Source: a virus (lineage: Duplodnaviria > Heunggongvirae > Uroviricota > Caudoviricetes). From it: 11,511 bases of DNA. This document shows, one piece after another, positions 1 through 11,511 of the stretch; the stretch's first letter is position 1; every line of letters begins with the position of its first letter. A model generated the notes under the pieces. It searched no databases. It was not told the origin of the DNA and worked only from the letters and a program-made list of their open reading frames with translations. The DNA is taken from the IMG/VR virus record IMGVR_UViG_2671181136_000012. The stretch is one strand, 5' to 3'. The translations under genes were made by a program, and so were the position numbers.

Positions 1-477
1 CACTGGTTCAGTGCCAGTCAGTGGCAGCTACCGAACGAAAGCGATTATCTGAAATTACAGTCGCTGTTTGCCCGGGTGGCAGAAGAGAAACATCAGCGCG
101 GTGAACTGGAAAAGCCCCACCACCAGCTGGTGGATACGTATACGTCACTGAACCGGCAGTATGTGGAGCTGCAGAGTGAATATAAGCATCTGCGGCGGTA
201 TTTTGGTGTGACGGCGCAGGTGCCGTACACGGATGTGTGGACACATAAACCGGTGCAGTTCTATCCCGGGAAACATCCGTGCGAAAAACCGGCAGAAATG
301 CTGCAGCAGATAATCAGCGCAAGCAGTCGTCCGGGTGACCTGGTTGCAGATTTTTTTATGGGCTCAGGTTCAACGGTAAAAGCTGCACTGGCGCTCGGGC
401 GTCGTGCGATTGGCGTTGAACTGGAGACCGGACGTTTTGAGCAGACAGTCAGGGAAGTTCAGGATTTAATCGTTTGA
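1..477 (+). CDS. DNA N6-adenine/N4-cytosine methyltransferase (PF01555-like), C-terminal part; gene starts upstream of the window
   Basis: Frame 1 is open from base 1 to the stop at 475-477 (the track ORF 76..477 starts at an internal GTG). The translation carries the C-terminal AdoMet-binding motif DFFMGSGST (FxGxG) and an HPCEKP motif resembling the HPTQKP motif of beta-class amino-methyltransferases. No adjacent restriction gene is visible. Confidence 0.7.
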   Translation, partial: HWFSASQWQLPNESDYLKLQSLFARVAEEKHQRGELEKPHHQLVDTYTSLNRQYVELQSEYKHLRRYFGVTAQVPYTDVWTHKPVQFYPGKHPCEKPAEMLQQIISASSRPGDLVADFFMGSGSTVKAALALGRRAIGVELETGRFEQTVREVQDLIV

Positions 478-526
478 AACGGATGAGATTGCAGAATTAA
501 TTACGCACCATTATTATTCTGCTTCC

Positions 527-602
527 GGCCCTTTAGCTCAGTGGTGAGAGCGAGCGACTCATAATCGCCAGGTCGCTGGTTCAAATCCAGCAAGGGCCAC
601 CA
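527..602 (+). tRNA. ileZ: tRNA-Ile2 (anticodon CAU, lysidine-type), ileZ/ileX-like
   Basis: 76 nt with a 7-bp acceptor stem (GGCCCTT/AAGGGCC), anticodon loop CTCATAA, T-loop GGTTCAAATCC and encoded CCA. It is near-identical in pattern to E. coli ileX, and this position matches the ileZ tRNA of Stx phages. Confidence 0.85.
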
Positions 603-609
603 TCACAAA

Positions 610-689
610 CCGCCATTAGCTTATCAGGAAGAGCAGACGACACGATAACAGGGTTGTTGGTGCGGGGGCGGGTCTCCGATGGCGGTCCA
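610..689 (+). pseudogene. Degenerate tRNA-like remnant (possible argN-type pseudo-tRNA)
   Basis: A perfect 7-bp acceptor-like pairing CCGCCAT (610-616) / ATGGCGG (679-685) is followed by T + CCA, and the 5' part reads TAGCTTATCAGG, like a tRNA D-arm. I could not fold a canonical anticodon arm or T-arm. Confidence 0.25.
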
Positions 690-702
690 TTATCGGTATT
701 CA

Positions 703-779
703 GCGTTGTTAGCTCAGCCGGACAGAGCAATTGCCTTCTAAGCAATCGGTCACTGGTTCGAATCCAGTACAGCGCGCCA
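703..779 (+). tRNA. argO: tRNA-Arg (anticodon UCU), argO/argU-like
   Basis: 77 nt with acceptor stem GCGTTGT/ACAGCGC (one G-U pair), anticodon loop CTTCTAA, T-loop GGTTCGAATCC and 3' GCCA. It resembles E. coli argU. Confidence 0.85.
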
Positions 780-886
780 TATTCATTCTTCCAGATTCCT
801 TTCGGCAGAGCCTTATACTGAAATATACCTGGCTCAGGATATTGTTGAAAATATTATATGTTTGTCAAAAATAAAAGTTCTGTTAA

Positions 887-1243
887 GTGTTGATTGAGTG
901 TTTGTTATACGGTCTAATGGTTTTTTCAGCATTAAATATTTATCATTCATATGGTGTGGGTAGAGTGAATATTGATGAGGCGTCGGGGTGTTTCATCCTT
1001 AGGCAGCGTATTGATATAGTCAATGCAGAACGAGCAAAGGCCTTCAGCCGTTTGACAGTTTTGTTCTGTACTCCTGATCGTCTTTCGGGAAGAGACGTTA
1101 TTATTCTGAATAGTGATGCTATACAGAGGGTTTGCGATGAGTTCATGGTGGCTAATTCAGAATTATTTGCTCTTGTTCAGGAGTACAACAGAATAGCCAG
1201 GACCTGTGGTATGGATGAACTTCGGATTACTCATCTGGGGTAG
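887..1243 (+). CDS. Hypothetical protein (118 aa from GTG 887; alternative start ATG 917)
   Basis: Six-frame ORF in an AT-rich segment directly after the tRNAs. There is no convincing Shine-Dalgarno sequence and no motif I recognise. Confidence 0.35.
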   Translation: MLIECLLYGLMVFSALNIYHSYGVGRVNIDEASGCFILRQRIDIVNAERAKAFSRLTVLFCTPDRLSGRDVIILNSDAIQRVCDEFMVANSELFALVQEYNRIARTCGMDELRITHLG

Positions 1244-1635
1244 ATACATATCTGGATTATCACCGGTTACGGTAAAAAGTGATTGCTTACTGTTTTTGTG
1301 AATGGCATTGCAGCAGCCGGATAATGTCAGTGCTGGCTGACGGTGTGCTGGTGGCGGGTGTGGTGGTTGCTGCTTTCCCGTTGCTGAAAAAGAAAACGCC
1401 AGACTGTTAGCCGGGTATCAGTTAGCGGGAGAAATTTTTAAATACTTCACAATTCAGGCGGTTGATTGTTGTCTGGTTTGCGGGGAGTTTGTTAAAAGAA
1501 ACTGGCATGGTGAATCCCCCTGTGCGGAGGGGCAATCAGCGAGTAGGTATATGGGATAATCGCGGATTCAGGTGCTGGTACTGAATTCACCGGGAGGCAC
1601 CCGGCACCATGCAATGGCACATAGCGCCACTCTCC

Positions 1636-1665
1636 AGCCCCTCTCCGGAGGGGCTGTTTATATTG
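1636..1665 (+). terminator. Rho-independent terminator-like hairpin
   Basis: Perfect 8-bp stem AGCCCCTC / GAGGGGCT with a 4-nt loop (TCCG), followed by a T-rich tract GTTTATATTGATTTT. Confidence 0.5.
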
Positions 1666-1690
1666 ATTTTGTCAGATGTGAGTAAACTCC

Positions 1691-2026
1691 TTATGGACTT
1701 TGTTGTTTTAGCCCATAAGGACATATTTGCAGAGTGCAACGGTTATTAAAGCATTCATTCAATACGTTATCTGTATTTGTAGGGCATTCCTGGCTGTTTT
1801 TGATTAAATTCCAGAATGTTTTATTGAATGGTACTACGTTGTAAATGGTTACAGGCAGCACTTTGTTATTGAGCATGATGCCTGTGTGAGTCAGTGTAAA
1901 TATACTTTCAGGAGGTAAGAAAGCATCCGATTGATACCAGATTATTAATTTTATTTTACTCCATATGACTGAAAAAGATATTCCGCATGATGGCTGGATA
2001 ACTGTATCAATCACAATCCACTTCAT
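1691..2026 (-). CDS. Hypothetical Cys-containing small protein (111 aa), AT-rich moron
   Basis: ORF on the minus strand with a good RBS (AAGGA, 6 nt before ATG at 2026). The gene is markedly AT-rich compared with its neighbours and is followed by a very AT-rich upstream region (2027-2270). Product has several Cys in the C-terminal half; no family recognised. Confidence 0.5.
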
Positions 2027-2286
2027 TTAGTTTCCTTGTTTATGCCTTGCTGGTGATGTTCTGAAAAGTATAAATGATATTTTTGATTGTAAACCATAGA
2101 GCAGAATTATTTTTCTGATGTTGTTTATTGTTTATTTAAATGCAGGGTGGTTTATATCTCGTCTTGTAGTTTATCCATGCATATCTGCTTGATGATGAGG
2201 TTTTTAATTAAGGTATGGTTTTGTGTTTTTTCTGTATTACATGTCAGGTATTTTAAAGAATCATTTTTCAGATGGTGGAAAGAACC

Positions 2287-4140
2287 ATGGCATTTAAACA
2301 CTATGATGTTGTCAGGGCGGCGTCGCCGTCAGATCTTGCGGAAAAGCTGACACATAAACTGAAAGAGGGCTGGCAGCCGTTTGGTAGTCCGGTGGCCATA
2401 ACCCCTTATACCCTGATGCAGGCGATTGCAGCAGAAGGTGATGTGGTCGTCAGTGGTGCAACTGAGCCGGAGTGGTACTACGTCATCGTACTGGCCGGGC
2501 AATCCAATGCCATGGCTTACGGTGAAGGGCTTCCGCTTCCGGATTCATACGATGCGCCCCATCCGCGCATTAAGCAACTGGCCCGTCGTAACACAGTGAC
2601 TCCCGGTGGTGAAGTATGCGTATTTAACGACATCATTCCTGCTGACCATTGTCTGCATGATGTTCAGGATATGAGTACGATTAACCATCCCCGGGCTGAC
2701 CTGAGCAAAGGGCAGTACGGCTGTGTCGGACAGGGCTTACATATTGCCAAAAAACTGCTTCCGTATATCCCTAATAATGCGGGGATCCTGCTGGTACCAT
2801 GCTGTCGTGGTGGTTCGGCATTCACCCAGGGCACGGAGGGGACATTCAGCGAGTCCACGGGGGCCAGTCAGGATTCGGCTCGCTGGGGAGTGGGTAAGCC
2901 GTTATATCAGGATCTGCTTTTCCGCACGAAGGCAGCATTGCAGAAAAACCCGAAAAACGTTTTGCTGGCGATATGCTGGATGCAGGGGGAATTCGATATG
3001 ACGAATGCCAGTTACGCCCAGCAGCCAGCAGCATTTCTTGCAATGGTACAGCAGTTCCGTGCTGACCTTGCCGGGCTGGCGGCGCAGTGTCACGGTGGAA
3101 GTCCGGCATCAGTCCCCTGGATTTGTGGCGACACGACATACGCGTGGAAACAAGAACACGGTACGCAATATGAAGTGGTATATGGTGCATATAAAGGTAA
3201 AGAATCCCAGCAGATTTATTTTGTTCCCTTTATGACCGATGGTAGCGGAGTTAATACACCGACAAACAACCCGTCAGAAGATCCTGATATTGCCGGGTCT
3301 GGTTATTACGGTTCGGCATCCCGAACGAACAAAAACTGGGTATCATCAAATCGCCCGACGCATTTCAGCTCATGGGCGCGTCGTGGCATTATTCCCGATC
3401 GTATGGCAACTGCTATTCTGAACGTAGCCGGTCGCACCTTAGCCTTCATTAGTGGTAAGGCACCGGAAATCAAACCCTCGCCCGGCGGCGACACGCCATC
3501 GGGGCCGTCTGAAGATGCATCCGTACGCACAATCTCCCTGTTGCCGACAGCCGGAGATGCTGCTGCGCAGGGCTGGAGCATTAAGAATGGCGGAATTCAG
3601 TTGTCAGATGGTGTATTTAAGATCACCAAGCAGAGCAATAAAGCCTGGTCCCTGACGCGCCCGGTGGATGACGCAGTCTCCCTGCTGACACGGGGTGGCA
3701 GACTGAGCTGTAAGTTTCGACTGTCAGGCGCACTGACCAACAATCAGTTCGGTCTGGGAATTTATCTGTATACCGATGTAGCGTTACCTGACGTCGTGGC
3801 GATGACCGGGACTGGTAACCCGTTCCTGATGTCGTTCTTCACCCAGACCACAGACGGCAAACTGAATCTGATGCATCACAGGAAAGCAGGAAACACAAAG
3901 TTGGGCGAGTTCGGGAATTACAGTAACGACTGGCAGACGCTGGAGCTGGTGTTCACCGCCGGCAGTGCCACGGTTACTCCGAAACTGAATGGAGTGGCTG
4001 GCCCGGCATTCCAGGTCATAAAAGACAGTCTGACACTGGGGCTGAATGCGCTGACGCTGACGGATATTACCAAAAATGCAACGTATGGCGTTGAGATAGA
4101 AAGTCTGGTGCTGGAGATAAATGCACCGGCATCATCATAA
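2287..4140 (+). CDS. nanS-p: Prophage sialate O-acetylesterase NanS-p-like (DUF1737 N-terminal region + SASA/SGNH esterase + C-terminal lectin-like domain)
   Basis: The N-terminus MAFKHYDVVRAASPSDL is DUF1737-like and is followed by the GQSNA esterase motif typical of SASA-family 9-O-acetylneuraminate esterases. Gene position (after the tRNA/stx locus, before the holin) is as in Stx and related lambdoid phages. Start taken at ATG 2287 (GGTGGAAAG upstream); the track ORF begins at ATG 2272 without an RBS. Confidence 0.8.
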   Translation: MAFKHYDVVRAASPSDLAEKLTHKLKEGWQPFGSPVAITPYTLMQAIAAEGDVVVSGATEPEWYYVIVLAGQSNAMAYGEGLPLPDSYDAPHPRIKQLARRNTVTPGGEVCVFNDIIPADHCLHDVQDMSTINHPRADLSKGQYGCVGQGLHIAKKLLPYIPNNAGILLVPCCRGGSAFTQGTEGTFSESTGASQDSARWGVGKPLYQDLLFRTKAALQKNPKNVLLAICWMQGEFDMTNASYAQQPAAFLAMVQQFRADLAGLAAQCHGGSPASVPWICGDTTYAWKQEHGTQYEVVYGAYKGKESQQIYFVPFMTDGSGVNTPTNNPSEDPDIAGSGYYGSASRTNKNWVSSNRPTHFSSWARRGIIPDRMATAILNVAGRTLAFISGKAPEIKPSPGGDTPSGPSEDASVRTISLLPTAGDAAAQGWSIKNGGIQLSDGVFKITKQSNKAWSLTRPVDDAVSLLTRGGRLSCKFRLSGALTNNQFGLGIYLYTDVALPDVVAMTGTGNPFLMSFFTQTTDGKLNLMHHRKAGNTKLGEFGNYSNDWQTLELVFTAGSATVTPKLNGVAGPAFQVIKDSLTLGLNALTLTDITKNATYGVEIESLVLEINAPASS

Positions 4141-4225
4141 AAAGTGAGCCAGTCAAATGGAAGGTATCGTTAAACTCACCGGTAGTGTCAGTGGGTCGTC
4201 TGAGATGCCTGCATGAGTTATCAGA

Positions 4226-4256
4226 GCCATCAGTACTTAACTGGTGGCTTTTTTTA
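4226..4256 (+). terminator. Rho-independent terminator-like hairpin upstream of the holin
   Basis: Stem GCCATCAG / CTGGTGGC (one G-U pair), 7-nt loop, then TTTTTTTATT. Confidence 0.45.
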
Positions 4257-4290
4257 TTGTTGTCAGCTTCCGGATAACGGGAGACGGGGT

Positions 4291-4506
4291 ATGTACCAGA
4301 TGGAAAAAATCACAACAGGTGTGTCATACACCACGTCAGCGGTGGGAACGGGCTACTGGTTCCTGCAGTTGCTGGACAGGGTTTCCCCGTCTCAGTGGGC
4401 GGCAATAGGCGTGCTGGGGAGTCTGCTGTTTGGGCTGCTGACATATCTGACTAACCTGTATTTCAAAATCAGAGAGGACCGTCGTAAGGCTGCACGGGGA
4501 GAGTAA
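4291..4506 (+). CDS. S: Phage holin, S21-like pinholin (class II, two TMDs) with dual-start motif
   Basis: 71 aa [71 protein letters not shown], closely resembling the phage 21 / Stx-phage holin. Two in-frame Met codons at 4291 and 4300 give the antiholin/holin dual start. RBS GGGAG at 4278-4282. The track ORF from 4213 overlaps the terminator hairpin and is probably not the real start. Confidence 0.85.
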
Positions 4507-4510
4507 TTCA

Positions 4511-5317
4511 ATGACTCAAAACTATGAACTGATTGTGAAAGGGATCCGCAATTTTGAGAATAAAGTTACGGTAACTTTAGCGTTACGGGACAAAAAACGC
4601 TTTGACGGTGAAATTTTTGACCTGGACATCTCGCTGGACCGTGTTGAAGGTGCCGCGCTGGAGGTTTATGAGGCAGCAGCCAGAAGGAGCATCAGACAGG
4701 TCTTCCTGGATGTTGCTGCCGGGTTATGTGAAGGGGATGAGCTGTCGCCGGAAAAGCGCCCCATAATTTTAGAGGCGCAGGATGTGTTGATAACCTACAA
4801 AGGAAAGCTACCGGGAAGAATTACTGGTTCTCTGAAGATGCCGCCGTCAACACTGCGGTCAGAAAAAGAGGCGTCTTGTCTGCAGTCTGAGTACTCCATT
4901 ACGGTTAAAAGTGCCGGAGAGGAAGGAAATAAACGTTATTTTATTGCGTCTGCACCTGATAAAGATCAGGAATGGGAGTGTAACCGGCCATCCTTTGTTG
5001 TATACGGAGATGGCGGGAAAATAACCATCTCAGAAAATGGGAAATTAACACCGCCATCGCACCAGCATAGTGAGGCGCTCATTGAATTTGCCATTGATTA
5101 CCTGAAGAACAATAAAAAGCAGGGGCTGATGAAGCGCATTGGTCGTTGCATGGGATATCTGCAGGTAGCAGCTGAGATTGAAATGATGGCCAGTGGTGCT
5201 GACAATGATGCAGTTGTGCTGGAGGCTCTTCTGCGTGATTTTGATAATACGCCCTTTAAGAAAGCACCTGTTGACTGGATGCAGCCGGGGATGACTTATC
5301 TGAAAGGGCGTATATAA
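4511..5317 (+). CDS. Hypothetical protein, 268 aa, inserted between holin and endolysin
   Basis: Clean 807-nt ORF with RBS GGGGAGAG (4493-4500) and a start 4 nt after the holin stop, so it is translationally placed in the late operon. Predicted soluble; no motif I recognise. Confidence 0.6.
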   Translation: MTQNYELIVKGIRNFENKVTVTLALRDKKRFDGEIFDLDISLDRVEGAALEVYEAAARRSIRQVFLDVAAGLCEGDELSPEKRPIILEAQDVLITYKGKLPGRITGSLKMPPSTLRSEKEASCLQSEYSITVKSAGEEGNKRYFIASAPDKDQEWECNRPSFVVYGDGGKITISENGKLTPPSHQHSEALIEFAIDYLKNNKKQGLMKRIGRCMGYLQVAAEIEMMASGADNDAVVLEALLRDFDNTPFKKAPVDWMQPGMTYLKGRI

Positions 5318-5326
5318 GGTGGCTCG

Positions 5327-5641
5327 TTATCTGTTGCTGGATAATCGACTGAAGATGCGTTCTTTTTGTGTTTTTGCGTAATGATTGTCCCACTCACAAT
5401 CAAGGTAGCTTAATTCTTCATTCAACCAGTTATTTATATTGGTCTTAATACGCATAAGCATGGGCTGTGTTAATGCTCTGGCGATAATGCCGAGAGTCAC
5501 AGGTGTGAGATGTCCATACGGCTCAGCCTGAATGGATTTTACTGCATCGTGTTCTTGTGGGAGGAGTAAGAGGCACTCTGATTTTACCCGCTCATTTATG
5601 GCTTGCAGGCATAAATCATAATTATGTTGATCGTTATGCAT
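5327..5641 (-). CDS. Hypothetical protein, 104 aa, convergent with the 268-aa gene
   Basis: Minus-strand ORF with a good RBS (AGGA, 6 nt before ATG at 5641). Its stop lies 9 bp from the stop of the 268-aa gene. AT-richer than the flanking lysis genes. Confidence 0.55.
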   Translation of the reverse strand: MHNDQHNYDLCLQAINERVKSECLLLLPQEHDAVKSIQAEPYGHLTPVTLGIIARALTQPMLMRIKTNINNWLNEELSYLDCEWDNHYAKTQKERIFSRLSSNR

Positions 5642-5769: not shown

Positions 5770-6303
5770 ATGAACACCAAAATCAAATATGGCCTGTCGG
5801 CTGCCGTTCTGGCGTTGATTGCCATCGGTGCGCCTGCGCCTGATATTCTCGACCAGTTTCTGGATGAAAAAGAAGGTAACCACACAACGGCATACCGTGA
5901 TGGTGCGGGTATCTGGACCATCTGCCGCGGTGCCACAATGGTGGATGGTAAACCTGTTATTCCGGGCATGAAACTGTCGAAGGAAAAATGCGACCAGGTT
6001 AATGCCATTGAACGGGATAAGGCGCTGGCATGGGTGGAGCGCAATATTAAAGTTCCACTGACCGAACCACAGAAAGCGGGTATAGCGTCATTCTGTCCCT
6101 ATAACATTGGCCCCGGTAAGTGTTTCCCGTCGACGTTTTATAAGCGGCTGAATGCTGGTGACCGCAGGGGAGCGTGTGAGGCGATTCGCTGGTGGATTAA
6201 GGACGGTGGCAGAGACTGCCGTATTCGTTCAAACAACTGCTACGGTCAGGTATCCCGTCGTGACCAGGAGAGCGCGCTGGCGTGCTGGGGTATCGACAGA
6301 TAA
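5770..6303 (+). CDS. R: SAR endolysin (lysozyme R, glycoside hydrolase family 24, R21-like)
   Basis: N-terminal signal-anchor-release segment MNTKIKYGLSAAVLALIAIGAPA and catalytic E-x8-D-x5-T motif (EGNHTTAYRDGAGIWT). 177 aa, as in Stx-phage and phage 21 R. Confidence 0.85.
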   Translation: MNTKIKYGLSAAVLALIAIGAPAPDILDQFLDEKEGNHTTAYRDGAGIWTICRGATMVDGKPVIPGMKLSKEKCDQVNAIERDKALAWVERNIKVPLTEPQKAGIASFCPYNIGPGKCFPSTFYKRLNAGDRRGACEAIRWWIKDGGRDCRIRSNNCYGQVSRRDQESALACWGIDR

Positions 6304-6601: not shown

Positions 6602-7069
6602 ATGAACCGCGTACTGTGCGTGGTCATCATTGCCCTGCTGGTGGCCTGTGGTGCGCTTAGTCTGGGGCTGAATCATTACCGTGATAACGCCATAACCTAC
6701 AAAGAGCAGCGCGATAAAAAAGTCAGTGAGCTGGAGCAGGCAAATGCAACCATTACTGATATGCAGCAGCGCCAGCGTGATGTTGCTGCACTTGATGCCA
6801 GATACTCGAGGGAATTAGCCGATGCGAGAGCTGAAAATGAAACTCTGCGCGCTGACGTTGCCGCTGGTCGTAAGCGCCTGCGGATCAACGCCACCTGCCC
6901 CGGTACCGTGCGTGAAGCCCCCACCACCTCCGGCGTGGATAATGCAACCGGCCCCCGACTGGCAGACACCGCTGAACGGGATTATTTCACTCTCAGAGAG
7001 CGGTTGATGCTGATGCAGAAGCAGCTGGAAGTGGCGCAGGAATATATCCGCACTCAGTGCCTGAAATAA
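6602..7069 (+). CDS. Rz: Spanin inner-membrane subunit Rz (i-spanin)
   Basis: 155 aa with an N-terminal TM segment and a coiled-coil periplasmic domain, near-identical in pattern to lambda Rz (NHYRDNAITYK...AAGRKRL...RDYFTLRERL). Confidence 0.9.
   Translation: MNRVLCVVIIALLVACGALSLGLNHYRDNAITYKEQRDKKVSELEQANATITDMQQRQRDVAALDARYSRELADARAENETLRADVAAGRKRLRINATCPGTVREAPTTSGVDNATGPRLADTAERDYFTLRERLMLMQKQLEVAQEYIRTQCLK
6822..7007 (+). CDS. Rz1: Spanin outer-membrane lipoprotein Rz1 (o-spanin), embedded in the +1 frame of Rz
   Basis: 61 aa MRELKMKLCALTLPLVVSAC... with a lipobox (VSAC) and the proline-rich CVKPPPPPAWIMQP motif as in lambda Rz1. RBS GAGGGA 8 nt upstream. Confidence 0.85.
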   Translation: MRELKMKLCALTLPLVVSACGSTPPAPVPCVKPPPPPAWIMQPAPDWQTPLNGIISLSESG

Positions 7070-7509: not shown

Positions 7510-8055
7510 ATGAAGGTTAATAAAAAGAAACTTGCCGAAATTTTCAACGTGGATCCGCGAACGATTGAACGCTGGCAGTCTCAGGGACTCCCTTGTGTCT
7601 CCGGAGGTGGTAAGGGCGTTGAATCTGTATTTGATACCGCCATGGCAATTCAGTGGTATGCGCAGAGGGAAGCTGATATCGAAAATGAAAAACTCCGTAA
7701 AGAGGTTGAGGATTACAGGGCTGCCAGTGAGGCAGATCTCCAGCCTGGGACTATTGAGTACGAACGCCATCGACTTACGCGTGCGCAGGCCGACGCACAG
7801 GAGCTGAAGAATGCCAGAGACTCCGCAGAGGTGGTGGAAACCGCATTCTGTACTTTCGTGCTGTCACGGATCGCAGGTGAAATTGCCAGTATTCTTGACG
7901 GGATCCCTCTCTCGGTACAGCGGCGTTTTCCGGAACTGGAAAACCGACATGTTGATTTCCTGAAACGGGATATCATCAAAGCCATGAACAAAGCAGCCGC
8001 GCTGGATGAACTGATACCGGGGTTGCTGAGTGAATATATCGAACAGTCAGATTGA
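7510..8055 (+). CDS. Nu1: Terminase small subunit Nu1 (mosaic: divergent N-terminal DNA-binding domain, lambda-like C-terminal part)
   Basis: 181 aa. Residues after about 55 (IENEKLR...[55 protein letters not shown]...) are essentially lambda Nu1. The N-terminal wHTH region ([29 protein letters not shown]...) differs from lambda and, as I recall it, resembles phage 21 gp1. Confidence 0.9.
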
Positions 8056-8722
8056 TATTCTGCGGCGTGATGTACGCGCCGGGCTGCGAGCCCTGTTCAG
8101 GCCGGAGCCACAGACTGCCGTTGAATGGGCGGATGCCAGTTACTATCTCCCGAAAGAATCCGCATACCAGGAAGGGCGCTGGGAAACACTGCCCTTTCAG
8201 CGGGCCATCATGAATGCGATGGGCAGCGACTACATCCGTGAGGTGAATGTGGTGAAGTCTGCCCGTGTCGGTTATTCCAAAATGCTGCTGGGTGTTTATG
8301 CCTACTTCATAGAGCATAAGCAGCGCAACACCCTTATCTGGTTGCCGACGGATGGTGATGCCGAGAACTTTATGAAAACCCACGTTGAGCCGACTATTCG
8401 TGATATTCCGTCGCTGCTGGCGCTGGCCCCGTGGTATGGCAAAAAGCACCGGGATAACACGCTCACCATGAAGCGTTTCACCAATGGGCGTGGCTTCTGG
8501 TGCCTGGGCGGTAAAGCGGCAAAAAACTACCGTGAAAAGTCAGTGGATGTGGCGGGTTATGATGAACTTGCTGCCTTTGATGAGGATATTGAACAGGAAG
8601 GCTCTCCAACGTTCCTGGGCGATAAGCGTATTGAAGGCTCGGTCTGGCCAAAGTCCATCCGTGGCTCCACGCCCAAAGTGAGAGGCACCTGTCAGATTGA
8701 GCGTGCAGCCAGTGAATCGTAA
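8030..8722 (+). pseudogene. A: Terminase large subunit A, 5' fragment (about 229 codons), truncated by IS insertion
   Basis: Translation matches the lambda gpA N-terminus (MNISNSQ...[61 protein letters not shown]...ERAASES), then stops at TAA 8720-8722, which is created by the IS terminus GTAAGCG beginning at 8719. Confidence 0.85.
8246..8718 (+). repeat. Direct repeat copy 1 (473 bp, terminase A internal segment)
   Basis: Bases 8246-8718 are identical, base for base, to 10265-10737 (offset 2019) in every block I compared. Confidence 0.9.
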
Positions 8723-10264
8723 GCGACTCGTCAGAACCGTATTGATATTTACTGAGAGCTCAGATCAACTTTCCAGGGCAACAGATCGCGTACCCGGTTT
8801 GCCGGCCAGTCCTGGATATGTTCAATGACGTAACGCAGCCACTTTTCTGGCTCCACATTGTTCAGACGGCATGTGCCGATCAGCGAGTACAACACCGCCG
8901 CATGTTCACCACCGCTGTCGGAACCCGCGAACATCCAGTTTTTCCGGCCTACGGCCACTCCCCGTAAGGCGTTCTCTGCGATGTTGTTGTCGATTTCCAC
9001 CCAGCCATTACTGCAGTACACGTTCAGTGCATCCCACTGTTTCAGCAGGTATGCGAACGCTTTTGCCGTATCTGAGTGACGCGACAGTGTTTTCATCTGT
9101 TGCTGTATCCAGTCATACAGTGACTGCATCAGTGGCGCGGCTCTGGCTTTTCTTGCCGCCAGACGCTGTTCTGCTGAACAGCCCCGGACCTCTGCCTCGA
9201 TGGCATACAGTTCACCGATACGCTGCAGGGCTTCCGTGGTGATGTAGGTGGGCGCTCTTGCATGCACATCGTGGATTTTTCTCCGGGCATGAGCCATACA
9301 CGCGGCTTCCGTTATTCTGCCGGATTCGTATAACGCCCGGTAACCACCGTAAGCATCGGCCTGAAGCACACCGCTGTAACCGGCCAGGTGATTTTGTGGA
9401 TGGATACCTTTCCGGTCCGGACTGTACGCGAACCAGACCGCCGGGGGCATCTGTGAACCGGCGTTACGGTCATCACGGACGTAGACCCACAGCCGGGCTG
9501 TCCGGGTTTTACCGCTGCCCGGCTCCTGGACCGGGACGGGGATATCATCAGCATGGACTTTACCGGGCATCAGCACATACTGGCGCAGGACGTCATACAG
9601 CGGCTCCAGCAGTTCAGCAACAGCACCTGTCCAGCGCCCCAGTGTGGCACGGCTCAGCTCCACTCCCTGACGACGGTATATTTCTGACTGGCGGTATAAC
9701 GGCAGATGGTCTGCATATTTCCCGGTGACAACATGGGCCAGAAGCCCCGCTCCGGCATAACTGCGTGCAATGGGTTTTGAAGGTACTGGTGCCTGCACGA
9801 TATGGTCGCACCGGCAACAGGCCTGTTTCGGACGTTGTGTTTCGATAACCTTAAAGGCGCTGCTGATAAGCTCCAGTTGCTCTGACACATCACATCCCAG
9901 AGAACTGAGTTCACCACCACAGGCAGGACAGCATTCCTCTTCCGGCCGGATAACCCGGGTTTCACGGGGAAGTGAGGCCGGTAACGGTTTACGGGCTGAA
10001 GACTGGCGCAGGGCGGATGGCAGTACCGGGTCATATTGCTCACCCAGCGTTTCCGCCATTTCTTCCTGAAGTGCGCTGATTCGCTCCTGTGCTTCCTGTA
10101 TCTGCCGTTCGGTTTTTGCACGAAGTTTTTCTGAGCTTTTACCGAACTGCATGCGCTGCAGTTTTGCAACCAGCGCCTTCAGCCGGTTGATTTCGGAAGC
10201 ATAAGCCGCCACCCGCTGTGAGAGCAGGCAGTTGTATTCAGCCATCTGGCGGATGGTGTCCTGT
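8719..10264 (-). mobile_element. Truncated IS66-family insertion sequence (one terminus plus the tnpC-type transposase gene only; orfA/orfB and the other inverted repeat are absent)
   Basis: The terminus at 8719 begins GTAAGCG, the characteristic IS66-family inverted-repeat start. The segment contains only the 498-aa transposase ORF with 30 bp and 19 bp flanks. At 10264/10265 the element abuts internal terminase sequence with no inverted repeat. Confidence 0.75.
8749..10245 (-). CDS. tnpC: IS66-family transposase (TnpC/orf3-type)
   Basis: 498 aa with an N-terminal coiled-coil/leucine-zipper region, Cys motifs CCPACGGEL ... CCRCDHIV (zinc finger typical of IS66 TnpC), and the conserved C-terminal region ...[47 protein letters not shown].... 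Confidence 0.85.
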
Positions 10265-10737
10265 AATGTGGTGAAGTCTGCCCGTGTCGGTTATTCCAAA
10301 ATGCTGCTGGGTGTTTATGCCTACTTCATAGAGCATAAGCAGCGCAACACCCTTATCTGGTTGCCGACGGATGGTGATGCCGAGAACTTTATGAAAACCC
10401 ACGTTGAGCCGACTATTCGTGATATTCCGTCGCTGCTGGCGCTGGCCCCGTGGTATGGCAAAAAGCACCGGGATAACACGCTCACCATGAAGCGTTTCAC
10501 CAATGGGCGTGGCTTCTGGTGCCTGGGCGGTAAAGCGGCAAAAAACTACCGTGAAAAGTCAGTGGATGTGGCGGGTTATGATGAACTTGCTGCCTTTGAT
10601 GAGGATATTGAACAGGAAGGCTCTCCAACGTTCCTGGGCGATAAGCGTATTGAAGGCTCGGTCTGGCCAAAGTCCATCCGTGGCTCCACGCCCAAAGTGA
10701 GAGGCACCTGTCAGATTGAGCGTGCAGCCAGTGAATC
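10265..10737 (+). repeat. Direct repeat copy 2 (473 bp, terminase A internal segment)
   Basis: Identical to 8246-8718. Beyond 10737 the sequence continues as uninterrupted terminase A (…ERAASESPHFMRFHVACPHCGEEQY…), whereas copy 1 is followed by the IS terminus. Confidence 0.9.
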
Positions 10738-11511
10738 CCCGCATTTTATGCGTTTTCATGTTGCCTGCCCGCACTGCGGGGAGGAGCAGTACCTTAAATT
10801 TGGCGATAAAGAGACGCCGTTTGGCCTCAAATGGACGCCGGATGATCCCTCCAGCGTGTTTTATCTCTGCGAACATAATGCCTGCGTCATCCGCCAGCAG
10901 GAGCTGGACTTCACTGATGCCCGTTATATCTGCGAAAAGACCGGGATCTGGACCCGTGATGGCATTCTCTGGTTTTCGTCATCCGGTGAAGAGATTGAAC
11001 CGCCTGACAGCGTGACCTTTCACATCTGGACGGCGTACAGCCCGTTCACCACCTGGGTGCAGATTGTCAAAGACTGGATGAAGACGAAAGGGGATACGGG
11101 AAAACGTAAAACCTTCGTGAACACCACGCTCGGTGAGACGTGGGAGGCGAAAATTGGCGAACGTCCGGATGCTGAAGTGATGGCAGAGCGGAAAGAGCAT
11201 TATTCAGCGCCCGTTCCTGACCGTGTGGCTTACCTGACTGCCGGTATCGACTCCCAGCTGGACCGCTACGAAATGCGCGTATGGGGATGGGGGCCGGGTG
11301 AGGAAAGCTGGCTGATTGACCGGCAGATTATTATGGGTCGCCACGACGATGAACAGACGCTGCTGCGTGTGGATGAGGCCATCAATAAAACCTATACCCG
11401 CCGGAATGGTGCAGAAATGTCGGTATCCCGTATCTGCTGGGATACTGGCGGGATTGACCCGACCATTGTGTATGAACGCTCGAAAAAACATGGGCTGTTC
11501 CGGGTGATCCC
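10265..11511 (+). pseudogene. A: Terminase large subunit A, 5'-truncated remainder (from about codon 73, containing Walker-A-like KSARVGYSK), running off the window end
   Basis: Frame 2 is open from 10205 to the window end. The translation from 10265 matches lambda gpA ([25 protein letters not shown] ... WDTGGIDPTIVYERSKKHGLFRVI). An in-frame ATG at 10253 sits in IS-derived sequence. The track does not list this ORF because it has no stop inside the window. Confidence 0.8.

Follow-up and report, generated by a model that had tools for sequence, protein, structure and literature searches.

Known parts in the moron region of an stx-free Escherichia coli lambdoid prophage: an STnc100-family sRNA, iraL and a small uncharacterised ORF

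Introduction

What fills the moron site downstream of the late tRNAs in a lambdoid prophage that carries no Shiga toxin genes? The question is raised by an 11,511-nt stretch of Caudoviricetes DNA (the window; IMG/VR record IMGVR_UViG_2671181136_000012), and in particular by its positions 780-2286. A sequence-only reading had proposed that this segment holds unknown genes at the position of stxAB, and that these would be highly transcribed on induction and could act as a virulence or fitness moron. The sequence features described there were confirmed, while the interpretation is partly supported. We consider it highly probable that this segment of an E. coli lambdoid prophage is a mosaic moron region of a common type, with known parts in two slots that are split by the sRNA STnc100.

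Results

The proposed order of methyltransferase, ileZ tRNA, Arg tRNA, cargo, nanS-p and S-R-Rz proved correct by annotation. The left backbone starts with the C-terminal part of a late-operon DNA methyltransferase (76-477, plus strand; PF01555 N6_N4_Mtase, E = 2.4e-25), whose O104:H4 counterpart is annotated as DNA-methyltransferase. It is followed on the same strand by a tRNA with the anticodon CAT (527-602; ARAGORN; Rfam tRNA, 72.5 bits), which is called Met by ARAGORN and tRNA-Ile by RefSeq, i.e. ileZ type, and is invariant relative to 933W ileZ. Next to it lies a degenerate argN pseudo-tRNA (plus strand, approximate limits 612-691) that aligns to argN of O104:H4, 933W and CFT073. Its internal ~50 nt are scrambled and it carries a 3-nt insertion; it was not recognised by ARAGORN or by the Rfam tRNA model. 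The last tRNA is tRNA-Arg(TCT) of the argO type (703-779, plus strand; ARAGORN, Rfam and 933W alignment). The right backbone is formed by a nanS-p-type SASA/DUF1737 esterase (2287-4140, plus strand; PF08410, PF03629, PF20350), which has a homologue in 933W and is labelled SASA family carbohydrate esterase in RefSeq O104:H4, and by holin (4291-4506), lysozyme (5770-6303) and Rz (6602-7069) genes.

The claimed absence of an A- or B-subunit ORF was borne out when the 933W Stx2A and Stx2B proteins were used as tblastn queries. Nothing better than E = 0.3 was found anywhere in the window, and within 780-2286 there was only a chance match of 16 residues (E = 1.9). These results support the placement of 780-2286 as the moron region 3' of the tRNAs in a lambdoid late operon, without stx. 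Since the prophage looks rearranged in its terminase gene, induction of the late operon in this host is not assured.

The alignment to 933W, which the sequence-only reading had suggested for defining the replacement boundaries, gave edges at 787, 1447, 1613 and 2286. In blastn, window 376-787 corresponded to 1970-2380 of the 933W locus (L005) and window 1447-1613 to L005 3749-3926; the homology stops at 787 and restarts at 2286. The stretch between the first two edges, slot A (788-1446, GC 0.34-0.49), is thereby the true positional equivalent of stx2AB (L005 2381-3748). A second insertion point, slot B (1666-2271, GC 0.30-0.37), extends from the STnc100 terminator to nanS-p and is occupied by iraL in the window and by AsxR in 933W. 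The GC is 0.49-0.535 at 1400-1700, 0.34-0.42 to the left and 0.30-0.37 to the right. In 933W, AsxR lies on the minus strand (L005 3985-4037, 88 bits for the AsxR model) and abuts STnc100, whereas in the window the AsxR and AgvB covariance models (RF02703 and RF02702) returned nothing up to E = 1. According to the alignments, the region runs from the tRNAs through slot A, STnc100 and slot B to nanS-p, with the sRNA dividing the two slots; iraL therefore occupies a different position from stx. The proposal of cargo at the position of stxAB thus holds for slot A but not for iraL, which lies beyond the sRNA.

The GC-richer stretch with hairpins and a terminator had been taken as part of the cargo. 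Both the hairpins and the terminator are present; however, they belong to an STnc100-family sRNA gene (1476-1665, plus strand, intrinsic terminator included). The Rfam model RF02076 matched 1476-1665 over its full length (model positions 1-206) at 132.4 bits, which exceeds its gathering score of 47 (E = 1.3e-29). Ten copies share a consensus structure of 33 pairs, nine of them with double-sided compensatory changes. The fold z-score is -2.4, and the terminator scan placed a hairpin at 1635-1656 with a T tract behind it. Between the conserved hairpins, the central part of the sRNA varies among the copies. An invariant TTGTTAAAA motif precedes the gene, and a scan for consensus promoters returned no more sites than in shuffled sequence. 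The family is known to be conserved immediately 3' of stxB in Stx phages (PMC12370729, PMC12711010, PMC4104026), and other copies, in EDL933 and Sakai, are reported to be expressed and to bind Hfq (PMC5331693, PMC12711010, PMC4104026). The 933W copy, ~70% identical to the one in the window, lies directly 3' of stxB2. Because the same sRNA holds this place beside stxB in 933W, STnc100 in the window is, on sequence grounds, conserved backbone and not replacement cargo.

The segment is also widespread. Its 1507 bases are 99.9% identical to many complete E. coli genomes; at least 80% of its length is present in 863 of 5426 such genomes, with hosts that include commensal, UPEC and animal isolates. 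For the whole 11,511-nt window, no complete E. coli genome in the collection contained 80% or more in one contiguous piece. The segment is modular: the ORF92 region was found in 1312 genomes, the iraL region in 1446, and the full combination in 863. The match of phage mEp460 ends at 1613 and that of 640R1 starts at 1447, positions that are described as inside the sRNA gene. O104:H4 strain 2011C-3493 differs from the segment by only one mismatch. By sequence comparison, the segment is the O104:H4 allele and close to the prophage of the CFT073 potB island. Its supposed novelty did not survive, since it is largely ordinary, annotated and widespread DNA that O104:H4 and CFT073 carry.

Slot A contains the 118-aa ORF (887-1243) of the sequence-only reading. 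This ORF exists, but the conserved start is the GTG at 965, which leaves an in-frame core of 92 aa (ORF92; 965-1243, plus strand). Two homologues (L007:3032-3310, annotated by PGAP, and L008:3069-3347) begin at this GTG too and likewise have 92 codons, free of indels. Across the three lineages, ~25% diverged in DNA, the dN/dS is 0.24-0.27 at a dS of about 1, with a twofold excess of third-position changes. The profile phrog_2873 covers residues 1-92 (profile positions 17-108, E = 2.5e-58). ORF92 is most likely a real gene starting at GTG 965 and, judged by its substitution pattern, is under purifying selection.

ORF92 is predicted to be a small soluble helical-hairpin protein. The AF2 model is a two-helix hairpin with a pLDDT of 85, for which Foldseek against the PDB gave generic coiled-coil and helical-hairpin matches only (E > 0.3), and the 92 residues contain neither a signal peptide nor a hydrophobic segment. 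Pfam and NCBIfam had no match to the 118-aa ORF. A word-indexed homologue search with it found only about 20 Escherichia/Shigella clusters, and a profile search against 1.84 billion representatives gave only 22 matches, all of them short hypothetical proteins. Distant homologues of 91-95 aa, in which Pfam found nothing significant, occur in Citrobacter at the matching place in the prophage late region. The family is confined to Escherichia and Citrobacter prophages and always lies just before the lysis genes; in Citrobacter a TerB-like tciA-tciB pair is next downstream. ORF92 is the only uncharacterised element left in the region, and only in this respect were the "unknown genes" of the sequence-only reading confirmed, as iraL and STnc100 are known.

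Downstream of ORF92, a deletion scar (1244-1310, plus strand) holds the remnants of the tciA 3' end and the tciB 5' end. Aligned to the tciA/tciB junction of phage JLK-2012, it shows three small deletions, and all but about 25 nt of tciA are deleted. The scar leads into a 5'-truncated tciB of 43 aa (1279-1410, plus strand), a DUF3927 ORF that the sequence-only reading had missed. PF13064 matched it at profile positions 7-53 of 53 (E = 1.3e-26), as did phrog_1470, named "TciB-like", a label based on PHROG and GenBank annotation only. Residues 12-39 match JLK-2012 TciB almost exactly, whereas the 22 N-terminal residues of the latter, a hydrophobic helix, are replaced in the window by 11 unrelated ones (MIAYCFCEWHC). 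A full-length TciB with its N-terminal hydrophobic helix, 3' of a TerB-like tciA, was not found in the window, and a literature search for TciA/TciB returned only unrelated Trypanosoma papers.

We considered whether slot A as a whole is decaying junk, with ORF92 and the truncated tciB as remnants of the tciA deletion that recent spread of the prophage has kept. The loss of the tciB N-terminal helix through small deletions and the trace of tciA fit this explanation. The putative Shine-Dalgarno sequence of ORF92, GGGTAGA, is weaker than the GGAG of its L007 homologue, the window lacks the terminator that L007 and L010 have downstream of ORF92, and PGAP leaves ORF92 unannotated in O104:H4 and CFT073. 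Moreover, since the E. coli copies are 98-100% identical, conservation within the allele says little. Nevertheless, ORF92 is intact and has kept its exact length in the three diverged lineages at a dN/dS of about 0.25, and the Citrobacter homologues sit at the matching late-region place. Junk is therefore an unlikely explanation for the slot. It is plausible for tciB alone, which has about an even chance of being a non-functional remnant, and not for ORF92.

Slot B contains an AT-rich minus-strand gene (1691-2026) with a good ribosome-binding site and AT-rich upstream DNA, just as had been described. We identified it as iraL, encoding a 111-aa RssB anti-adaptor of the IraM/IraL/RssC family. 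Its product is identical to CFT073 IraL (WP_000871291.1) in 111 of 111 aa, and NCBIfam NF007393 matched residues 1-110 with 162 bits (cut-off 121). K-12 IraM is 62% identical to it over the full length. The set of RssB-contact residues taken from the crystal structure of the IraM-RssB complex (I4, I6, W22, K26, I42; T13, C14, F18, W30; I61, Y62, H63, I64; bioRxiv 10.1101/2023.01.07.523045) is identical at 10 of 13 positions; T13S and I64V are conservative and H63N is changed. From the homology to this complex (PDB 8twd; residues 4-81, E = 9e-32) we infer a PmrD-like beta-barrel core.

CFT073 IraL (ycgW) was characterised experimentally as an RssB anti-adaptor with a stabilising effect on RpoS (Hryckowian et al. 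2014, PMC4045071). [quoted passage not shown] By analogy with this identical protein, the window IraL would bind RssB and block the delivery of RpoS to ClpXP.

The leader and promoter of iraL (2027-2093, minus strand) were located from the published 5'-RACE end and the CFT073 alignment. The RACE end, 5' ACATCACCAGCAAGGCATAAACAAGGAAAC (PMC4045071), maps to window 2059-2030, which puts the transcription start at 2059. Upstream of it are the -10 element TATACT at 2072-2067 (or TACTTT at 2070-2065) and the -35 element TTTACA at 2093-2088, and the Shine-Dalgarno sequence AAGGAAA (2037-2031) lies five bases 5' of the ATG. The very AT-rich region further upstream (2094-2271, GC about 0.30-0.32) is common to CFT073, and 1666-2286 (621 nt) as a whole is 98.2% identical to that strain. 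The terminator scan found no minus-strand terminator 3' of iraL. By analogy with PhoP-activated iraM, a PhoP box was also considered, with a TGTTTA-N5-TATTTA-like motif seen by eye at ~2127-2143; it was dropped, as the upstream regions have no homology. O104:H4 carries the exact iraL allele of the window.

The iraL of the window could be silent or behave differently from that of CFT073, through H-NS silencing of the AT-rich upstream DNA or through promoter polymorphisms. The upstream GC of about 0.30 and substitutions at 2029, 2060 and 2087 near the promoter would agree with this, and in JJ1886 a second iraL copy carries a -35 point mutation (PMC4045071). However, the three substitutions are the only differences from CFT073 near the promoter, and the hexamers, the Shine-Dalgarno sequence and the coding sequence are all unchanged. 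In an O104:H4 transcriptome, log and transition phase are reported to show expression and regulation of a gene annotated as iraM, possibly at another locus (PMC12864459). We regard a silent or divergent iraL as quite improbable.

The idea of high transcription on induction fails for iraL because the gene is antisense to late transcription and has its own sigma-70 promoter, which is active in log-phase lysogens (PMC4045071). A rival view is that a novel virulence or toxin-like cargo, highly expressed on induction, has replaced stxAB. In its favour, the region 3' of the tRNAs is the stx moron site, its DNA is AT-rich and foreign-looking, and the function of ORF92 lacks assignment. Still, two of the three highlighted features, iraL and STnc100, are known; iraL lies outside the stx-equivalent slot; ORF92, with no signal or hydrophobic segment, is predicted to be a generic helical hairpin; and the segment is found widely, in commensal, UPEC and animal isolates alike. 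Such a cargo is very improbable. Of the suggested virulence or fitness moron, what stands is that a real host-fitness gene is included, and what falls is the toxin-like cargo.

Discussion

Under the mosaic explanation, slot A holds ORF92 and a decayed tciA-tciB pair. By analogy to stx, transcription from the Q-dependent late promoter would extend through these plus-strand elements when the prophage is induced. In slot B, iraL on the opposite strand would be transcribed from its own sigma-70 promoter at 2059. Binding of IraL to RssB would then keep RpoS from ClpXP and raise RpoS in growing lysogens, as in CFT073.

We also entertain a more speculative and rather doubtful idea, in which ORF92 is a functional moron that affects the host. 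Its role might lie, for instance, in superinfection exclusion or, jointly with TciA/TciB, in envelope stress or colicin tolerance. A separate idea, with the same reservation, concerns antisense transcription. Since iraL and STnc100 are convergent and no iraL terminator was found, iraL transcripts could run antisense across STnc100, and late transcripts could likewise cross iraL in antisense. If this were true, RpoS control would be linked to prophage induction.

The main value of the analysis is a correction: the hairpins belong to a prophage sRNA family that has already been published and also flanks stx in EHEC. A module that was thought to be an empty stx slot with unknown genes is found in about one sixth of the complete E. 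coli genomes, and the two-slot map offers a simple way to catalogue the cargo of lambdoid prophages.

Among known systems, CFT073 shares with the window the common order of tRNAs, DUF3927, STnc100, iraL and nanS-p/holin, together with the identical protein and a matching promoter and leader. Its own layout is Q, tRNAs, DUF3927, iraL, (truncated) nanS-p and holin. It differs in that nanS-p is cut down to the DUF1737 part and an IS200 lies 5' of the tRNAs. The CFT073 paper places iraL only in the "potB genomic island" and not in a moron slot beside an sRNA (PMC4045071). All five cysteines of K-12 IraM align with the window IraL. However, the upstream DNA of K-12 iraM is unrelated, with homology ending at the start codon, and the gene sits beside icd/e14, where a check found no STnc100 nearby. 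Mg2+ starvation induces K-12 IraM; IraL, in contrast, is active in log phase (PMC4045071).

The DUF3927 ORF and STnc100 of the window resemble those of JLK-2012, with 92% identity over 1311-1621. Citrobacter prophages have the intact order of ORF92 homologue, tciA and tciB. The tciA-tciB moron of JLK-2012 and of the Citrobacter prophages differs from the window, where tciA has been deleted and the first hydrophobic helix of TciB is missing.

The closest parallel in architecture is the stx2AB moron of 933W and Sp5 with its EcOnc27/AsxR pair. STnc100 (RF02076) is the same as EcOnc27 and sRNA103 and is related to PasD (comparison based on PMC4104026, PMC12711010 and bioRxiv 10.64898/2026.05.13.724894), and it lies between the moron CDS and nanS-p in the window as in 933W/Sp5. 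Both have the same backbone anchors, ileZ-argN-argO to the left, STnc100 centrally and nanS-p to the right, and in each an element on the minus strand runs convergently towards the STnc100 terminator. The moron CDS is stx2AB in 933W/Sp5, but ORF92 and a broken tciB in the window; the convergent element is the 53-nt anti-sRNA AsxR there and the protein gene iraL here. A moron CDS with a convergent sRNA pair is an architecture known from EHEC prophages (PMC4104026, Tree et al. 2014), and since iraL takes the place and the strand of AsxR, the locus can be read as a variant of it.

Layout and distribution of the segment

The window represents the late part of a lambdoid prophage of E. coli. It carries the C-terminus of a DNA methyltransferase (76-477, PF01555), a tRNA with the anticodon CAT (527-602), tRNA-Arg(TCT) (703-779), the segment under study (780-2286), a nanS-p-type SASA/DUF1737 esterase gene (2287-4140), a P21-type holin (4291-4506), lysozyme (5770-6303), Rz (6602-7069) and Nu1 terminase (7510-8055), 3' of which the gpA terminase gene is split by an IS66-family transposase. 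The annotated order of methyltransferase, tRNAs, segment, esterase and lysis genes agrees with the sequence-only reading, and so does the absence of stx, as Stx2A and Stx2B of phage 933W had no tblastn match in the window.

At least 80% of the segment length was found by megablast in 863 of 5426 complete E. coli genomes, many at 99.9% identity and O104:H4 outbreak strains among them; 2011C-3493 shows a single mismatch. RefSeq places three calls under it, a "DUF3927 family protein", a pseudo "hypothetical protein" and an "anti-adapter protein IraM". The gene order of the window recurs in the CFT073 prophage at potB: antiterminator, tRNA-Ile, two tRNA-Arg, DUF3927, the IraM-annotated gene, (truncated) esterase and holin. 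The segment is a common, already annotated element. It had been read as a moron region without toxin, which holds, but most of its cargo is known: the parts and their architecture have been described before, and the segment is widespread.

Several other features of the window were observed. At the argN position (~612-691), flanked by the ileZ-type tRNA and argO, lies a degenerate pseudo-tRNA called neither by ARAGORN nor by the Rfam tRNA model. Both of its ends can be aligned to argN of O104:H4, 933W and CFT073, while the internal ~50 nt are scrambled, with a 3-nt insertion. The esterase-holin intergenic region (4141-4290) had no Rfam match but contains a strong terminator-like hairpin (4223-4251, 12 pairs, then T7) which may be an unmodelled sRNA; PasA/PasC-type sRNAs occupy this place in other prophages (bioRxiv 10.64898/2026.05.13.724894). 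Between holin and lysozyme lie a 268-aa ORF (4511-5317, plus strand), in which a DUF1327/YdfR-like N-terminus seems to be fused to a phrog_1085 C-terminus, and, convergent with it, a 104-aa ORF (5327-5641, minus strand) in phrog_1853, without a Pfam match.

An exact 473-bp direct repeat of gpA sequence (8246-8718 and 10265-10737) flanks 1546 bp (8719-10264) whose sole ORF is an IS66-family (ISCro1-like) DDE transposase (8749-10245, minus strand). The repeat is far too long for a target-site duplication. None of the complete E. coli genomes in the collection carries 80% or more of the whole window in one piece, so the gpA/IS66 region reflects either a rearrangement or an error of assembly. A real rearrangement would make the prophage packaging-defective.

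STnc100 sRNA gene

The stretch 1476-1665 matches the whole Rfam model RF02076 (STnc100) with 132.4 bits against a gathering score of 47. In an alignment of ten copies, taken from the window and from five other loci, the closing helix (CAUGGUG / CACCAUG) is common to all, as are three internal hairpins and the terminator; 9 of 33 consensus pairs carry compensatory changes. This sRNA gene is the "GC-richer stretch" with hairpins and terminator that had been counted as cargo in place of stx. That view is not sustained: 933W has a member of the same family (3778-3983 of its locus, plus strand) 75 bases 3' of the stxB2 stop codon, and direct blastn aligns window 1447-1613 to this place, so STnc100 belongs to the conserved backbone. 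The 933W copy is the Hfq-bound sRNA EcOnc27 / sRNA103 (PMC4104026, PMC12711010). In EDL933 eleven STnc100 copies are expressed, and a Northern blot confirmed one of them (PMC5331693); a 2026 preprint ties the family to PasD and the esterase gene (10.64898/2026.05.13.724894).

In O104:H4 and CFT073, RefSeq/PGAP has an 'incomplete hypothetical protein' pseudo-CDS antisense to STnc100 (window ~1495-1620, minus strand; 10716-10841 of locus L001), most likely a false protein prediction over a gene for a structured RNA. The prophage of E. coli 88-3493 (locus L008) has five STnc100 copies (1665-1877 and 3637-4616), four of them in a head-to-tail row that separates an ORF92 homologue from the esterase; directly 5' of this homologue is an AraC-like HTH gene.

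iraL on the minus strand

The gene at 1691-2026 (minus strand) encodes 111 aa. NCBIfam NF007393 recognises the protein at 162 bits (cut-off 121), its full-length identity with K-12 IraM is 62%, and it matches the crystallised IraM fragment (PDB 8twd) with E = 9e-32. To the CFT073 protein it is identical at 111/111 residues. Judged by this sequence identity, the gene is iraL, so it is not the unknown gene it was taken for. Its CFT073 counterpart on the potB island, formerly ycgW, is the characterised iraL, whose product binds RssB and keeps RpoS stable in logarithmic growth; the transcript 5' end was mapped via RACE (PMC4045071).

The published 5' end sequence equals window 2059-2030 (minus strand), so the leader is 33 nt long and has AAGGAAA as its Shine-Dalgarno. 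Upstream are the hexamers TTTACA and TATACT/TACTTT. In the iraL part, 11 of 621 positions differ from CFT073, none in the hexamers or in coding sense. Homology between K-12 iraM and iraL ends at the start codon, which fits the different regulation reported for both genes. The crystal structure (bioRxiv 10.1101/2023.01.07.523045) shows thirteen IraM residues in contact with RssB; at these positions IraL has ten identical residues, two conservative changes and H63 replaced by N. The gene with its promoter was present in 1446 of 5426 genomes, in up to three copies per genome.

ORF92 and the remnant of tciA-tciB

The 118-aa ORF (887-1243) has no PGAP annotation in O104:H4 and CFT073 and no Pfam or NCBIfam match. 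Diverged copies (72-76% DNA identity) occur at locus L007 (3032-3310, annotated WP_001017777.1) and in 88-3493 (3069-3347). Both begin at a GTG aligned with window 965, which in L007 is preceded by a stop codon 33 bases 5'. All three have exactly 92 codons without indels, dN/dS is 0.24-0.27 at dS ~1 (Nei-Gojobori), and third codon positions differ twice as often as first or second ones. The 26-codon N-terminal extension is hydrophobic-looking and not conserved. The aligned start, fixed length, dN/dS and unconserved extension therefore support the proposed ORF as a real gene but place it best at 965-1243 (ORF92).

ORF92 falls in phrog_2873, a family without an assigned function. When 1.84 billion representative proteins were searched with a profile, only 22 relatives emerged, the full-length ones 91-106 aa long and the named ones from Escherichia or Citrobacter. 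The AlphaFold model (pLDDT 85) is a two-helix hairpin (helices 3-35 and 50-81), for which Foldseek returned only generic helical hairpins, and the conserved part has no hydrophobic segment. Our best guess is a cytoplasmic protein that would act via protein-protein contacts and be expressed from the late operon.

Overlooked in the earlier reading was a 43-aa ORF (1279-1410) with matches to DUF3927 (PF13064, E = 1.3e-26) and phrog_1470 "TciB-like". Phage JLK-2012, 92% identical to the window over 1311 to 1621, has tciA (TerB-like), a full tciB (54 aa), then STnc100 and the esterase. In the window only the last ~25 nt of tciA are left 5' of 1311, and three small deletions in the tciB 5' end put 11 unrelated residues in place of the first hydrophobic helix. 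Citrobacter prophages keep the order of ORF92 homologue, terminator, tciA, tciB and holin intact, so slot A (788-1446) looks like this array minus tciA. Three such loci (L010-L012) were observed; in L010 (5001-6063) a 95-aa homologue with its own terminator precedes tciA (TerB-like, 141 aa), tciB (DUF3927, 50 aa) and holin. That these genes recur together hints at a possible functional relation between ORF92 and TciA/TciB.

Proposed working of the region

In growing lysogens IraL would be made from its own sigma-70 promoter, bind RssB and raise RpoS, as shown elsewhere for the identical gene. STnc100 RNA would be present before induction and may bind Hfq: expression in uninduced EHEC was shown for family members, and Hfq binding for the copy 3' of stx2B. 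No minus-strand terminator was found 3' of iraL, so its transcripts may extend antisense over STnc100. On induction, Q-modified polymerase would continue past the tRNAs into ORF92 and the tciB remnant and on beyond the STnc100 terminator, as for stx. This late read-through would be antisense to iraL, with possible interference.

Two insertion slots compared with 933W

Homology of 933W to the window runs via the tRNAs up to 787, returns at 1447-1613 (the sRNA) and again from 2286 (the esterase start). A slot equivalent to that of stx was correctly expected here, but the sRNA gene divides the region into two slots, of which slot A is the equivalent. Slot A (659 bp) corresponds to 1368 bp with stx2AB in 933W, and slot B (1666-2271 or so) to about 200 bp. 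The GC contrasts agree with two slots (slot A 0.34-0.42, sRNA 0.49-0.535, slot B 0.30-0.37, backbone 0.52-0.58). Phage mEp460_ev081 matches window 488-1613 and vB_EcoS-640R1 matches 1447-2506, both junctions lying within the sRNA gene. The contents of each slot were found in more genomes than their combination; the two modules travel separately.

This 933W layout is precisely the one described by Tree et al., with a moron CDS after PR', then convergent sRNAs, then a conserved phage ORF (PMC4104026). Rfam gave no AsxR or AgvB match in the window, while in 933W AsxR (3985-4037, minus strand) is convergent with STnc100, one base apart. The place and strand of this anti-sRNA are occupied in the window by a protein gene, iraL.
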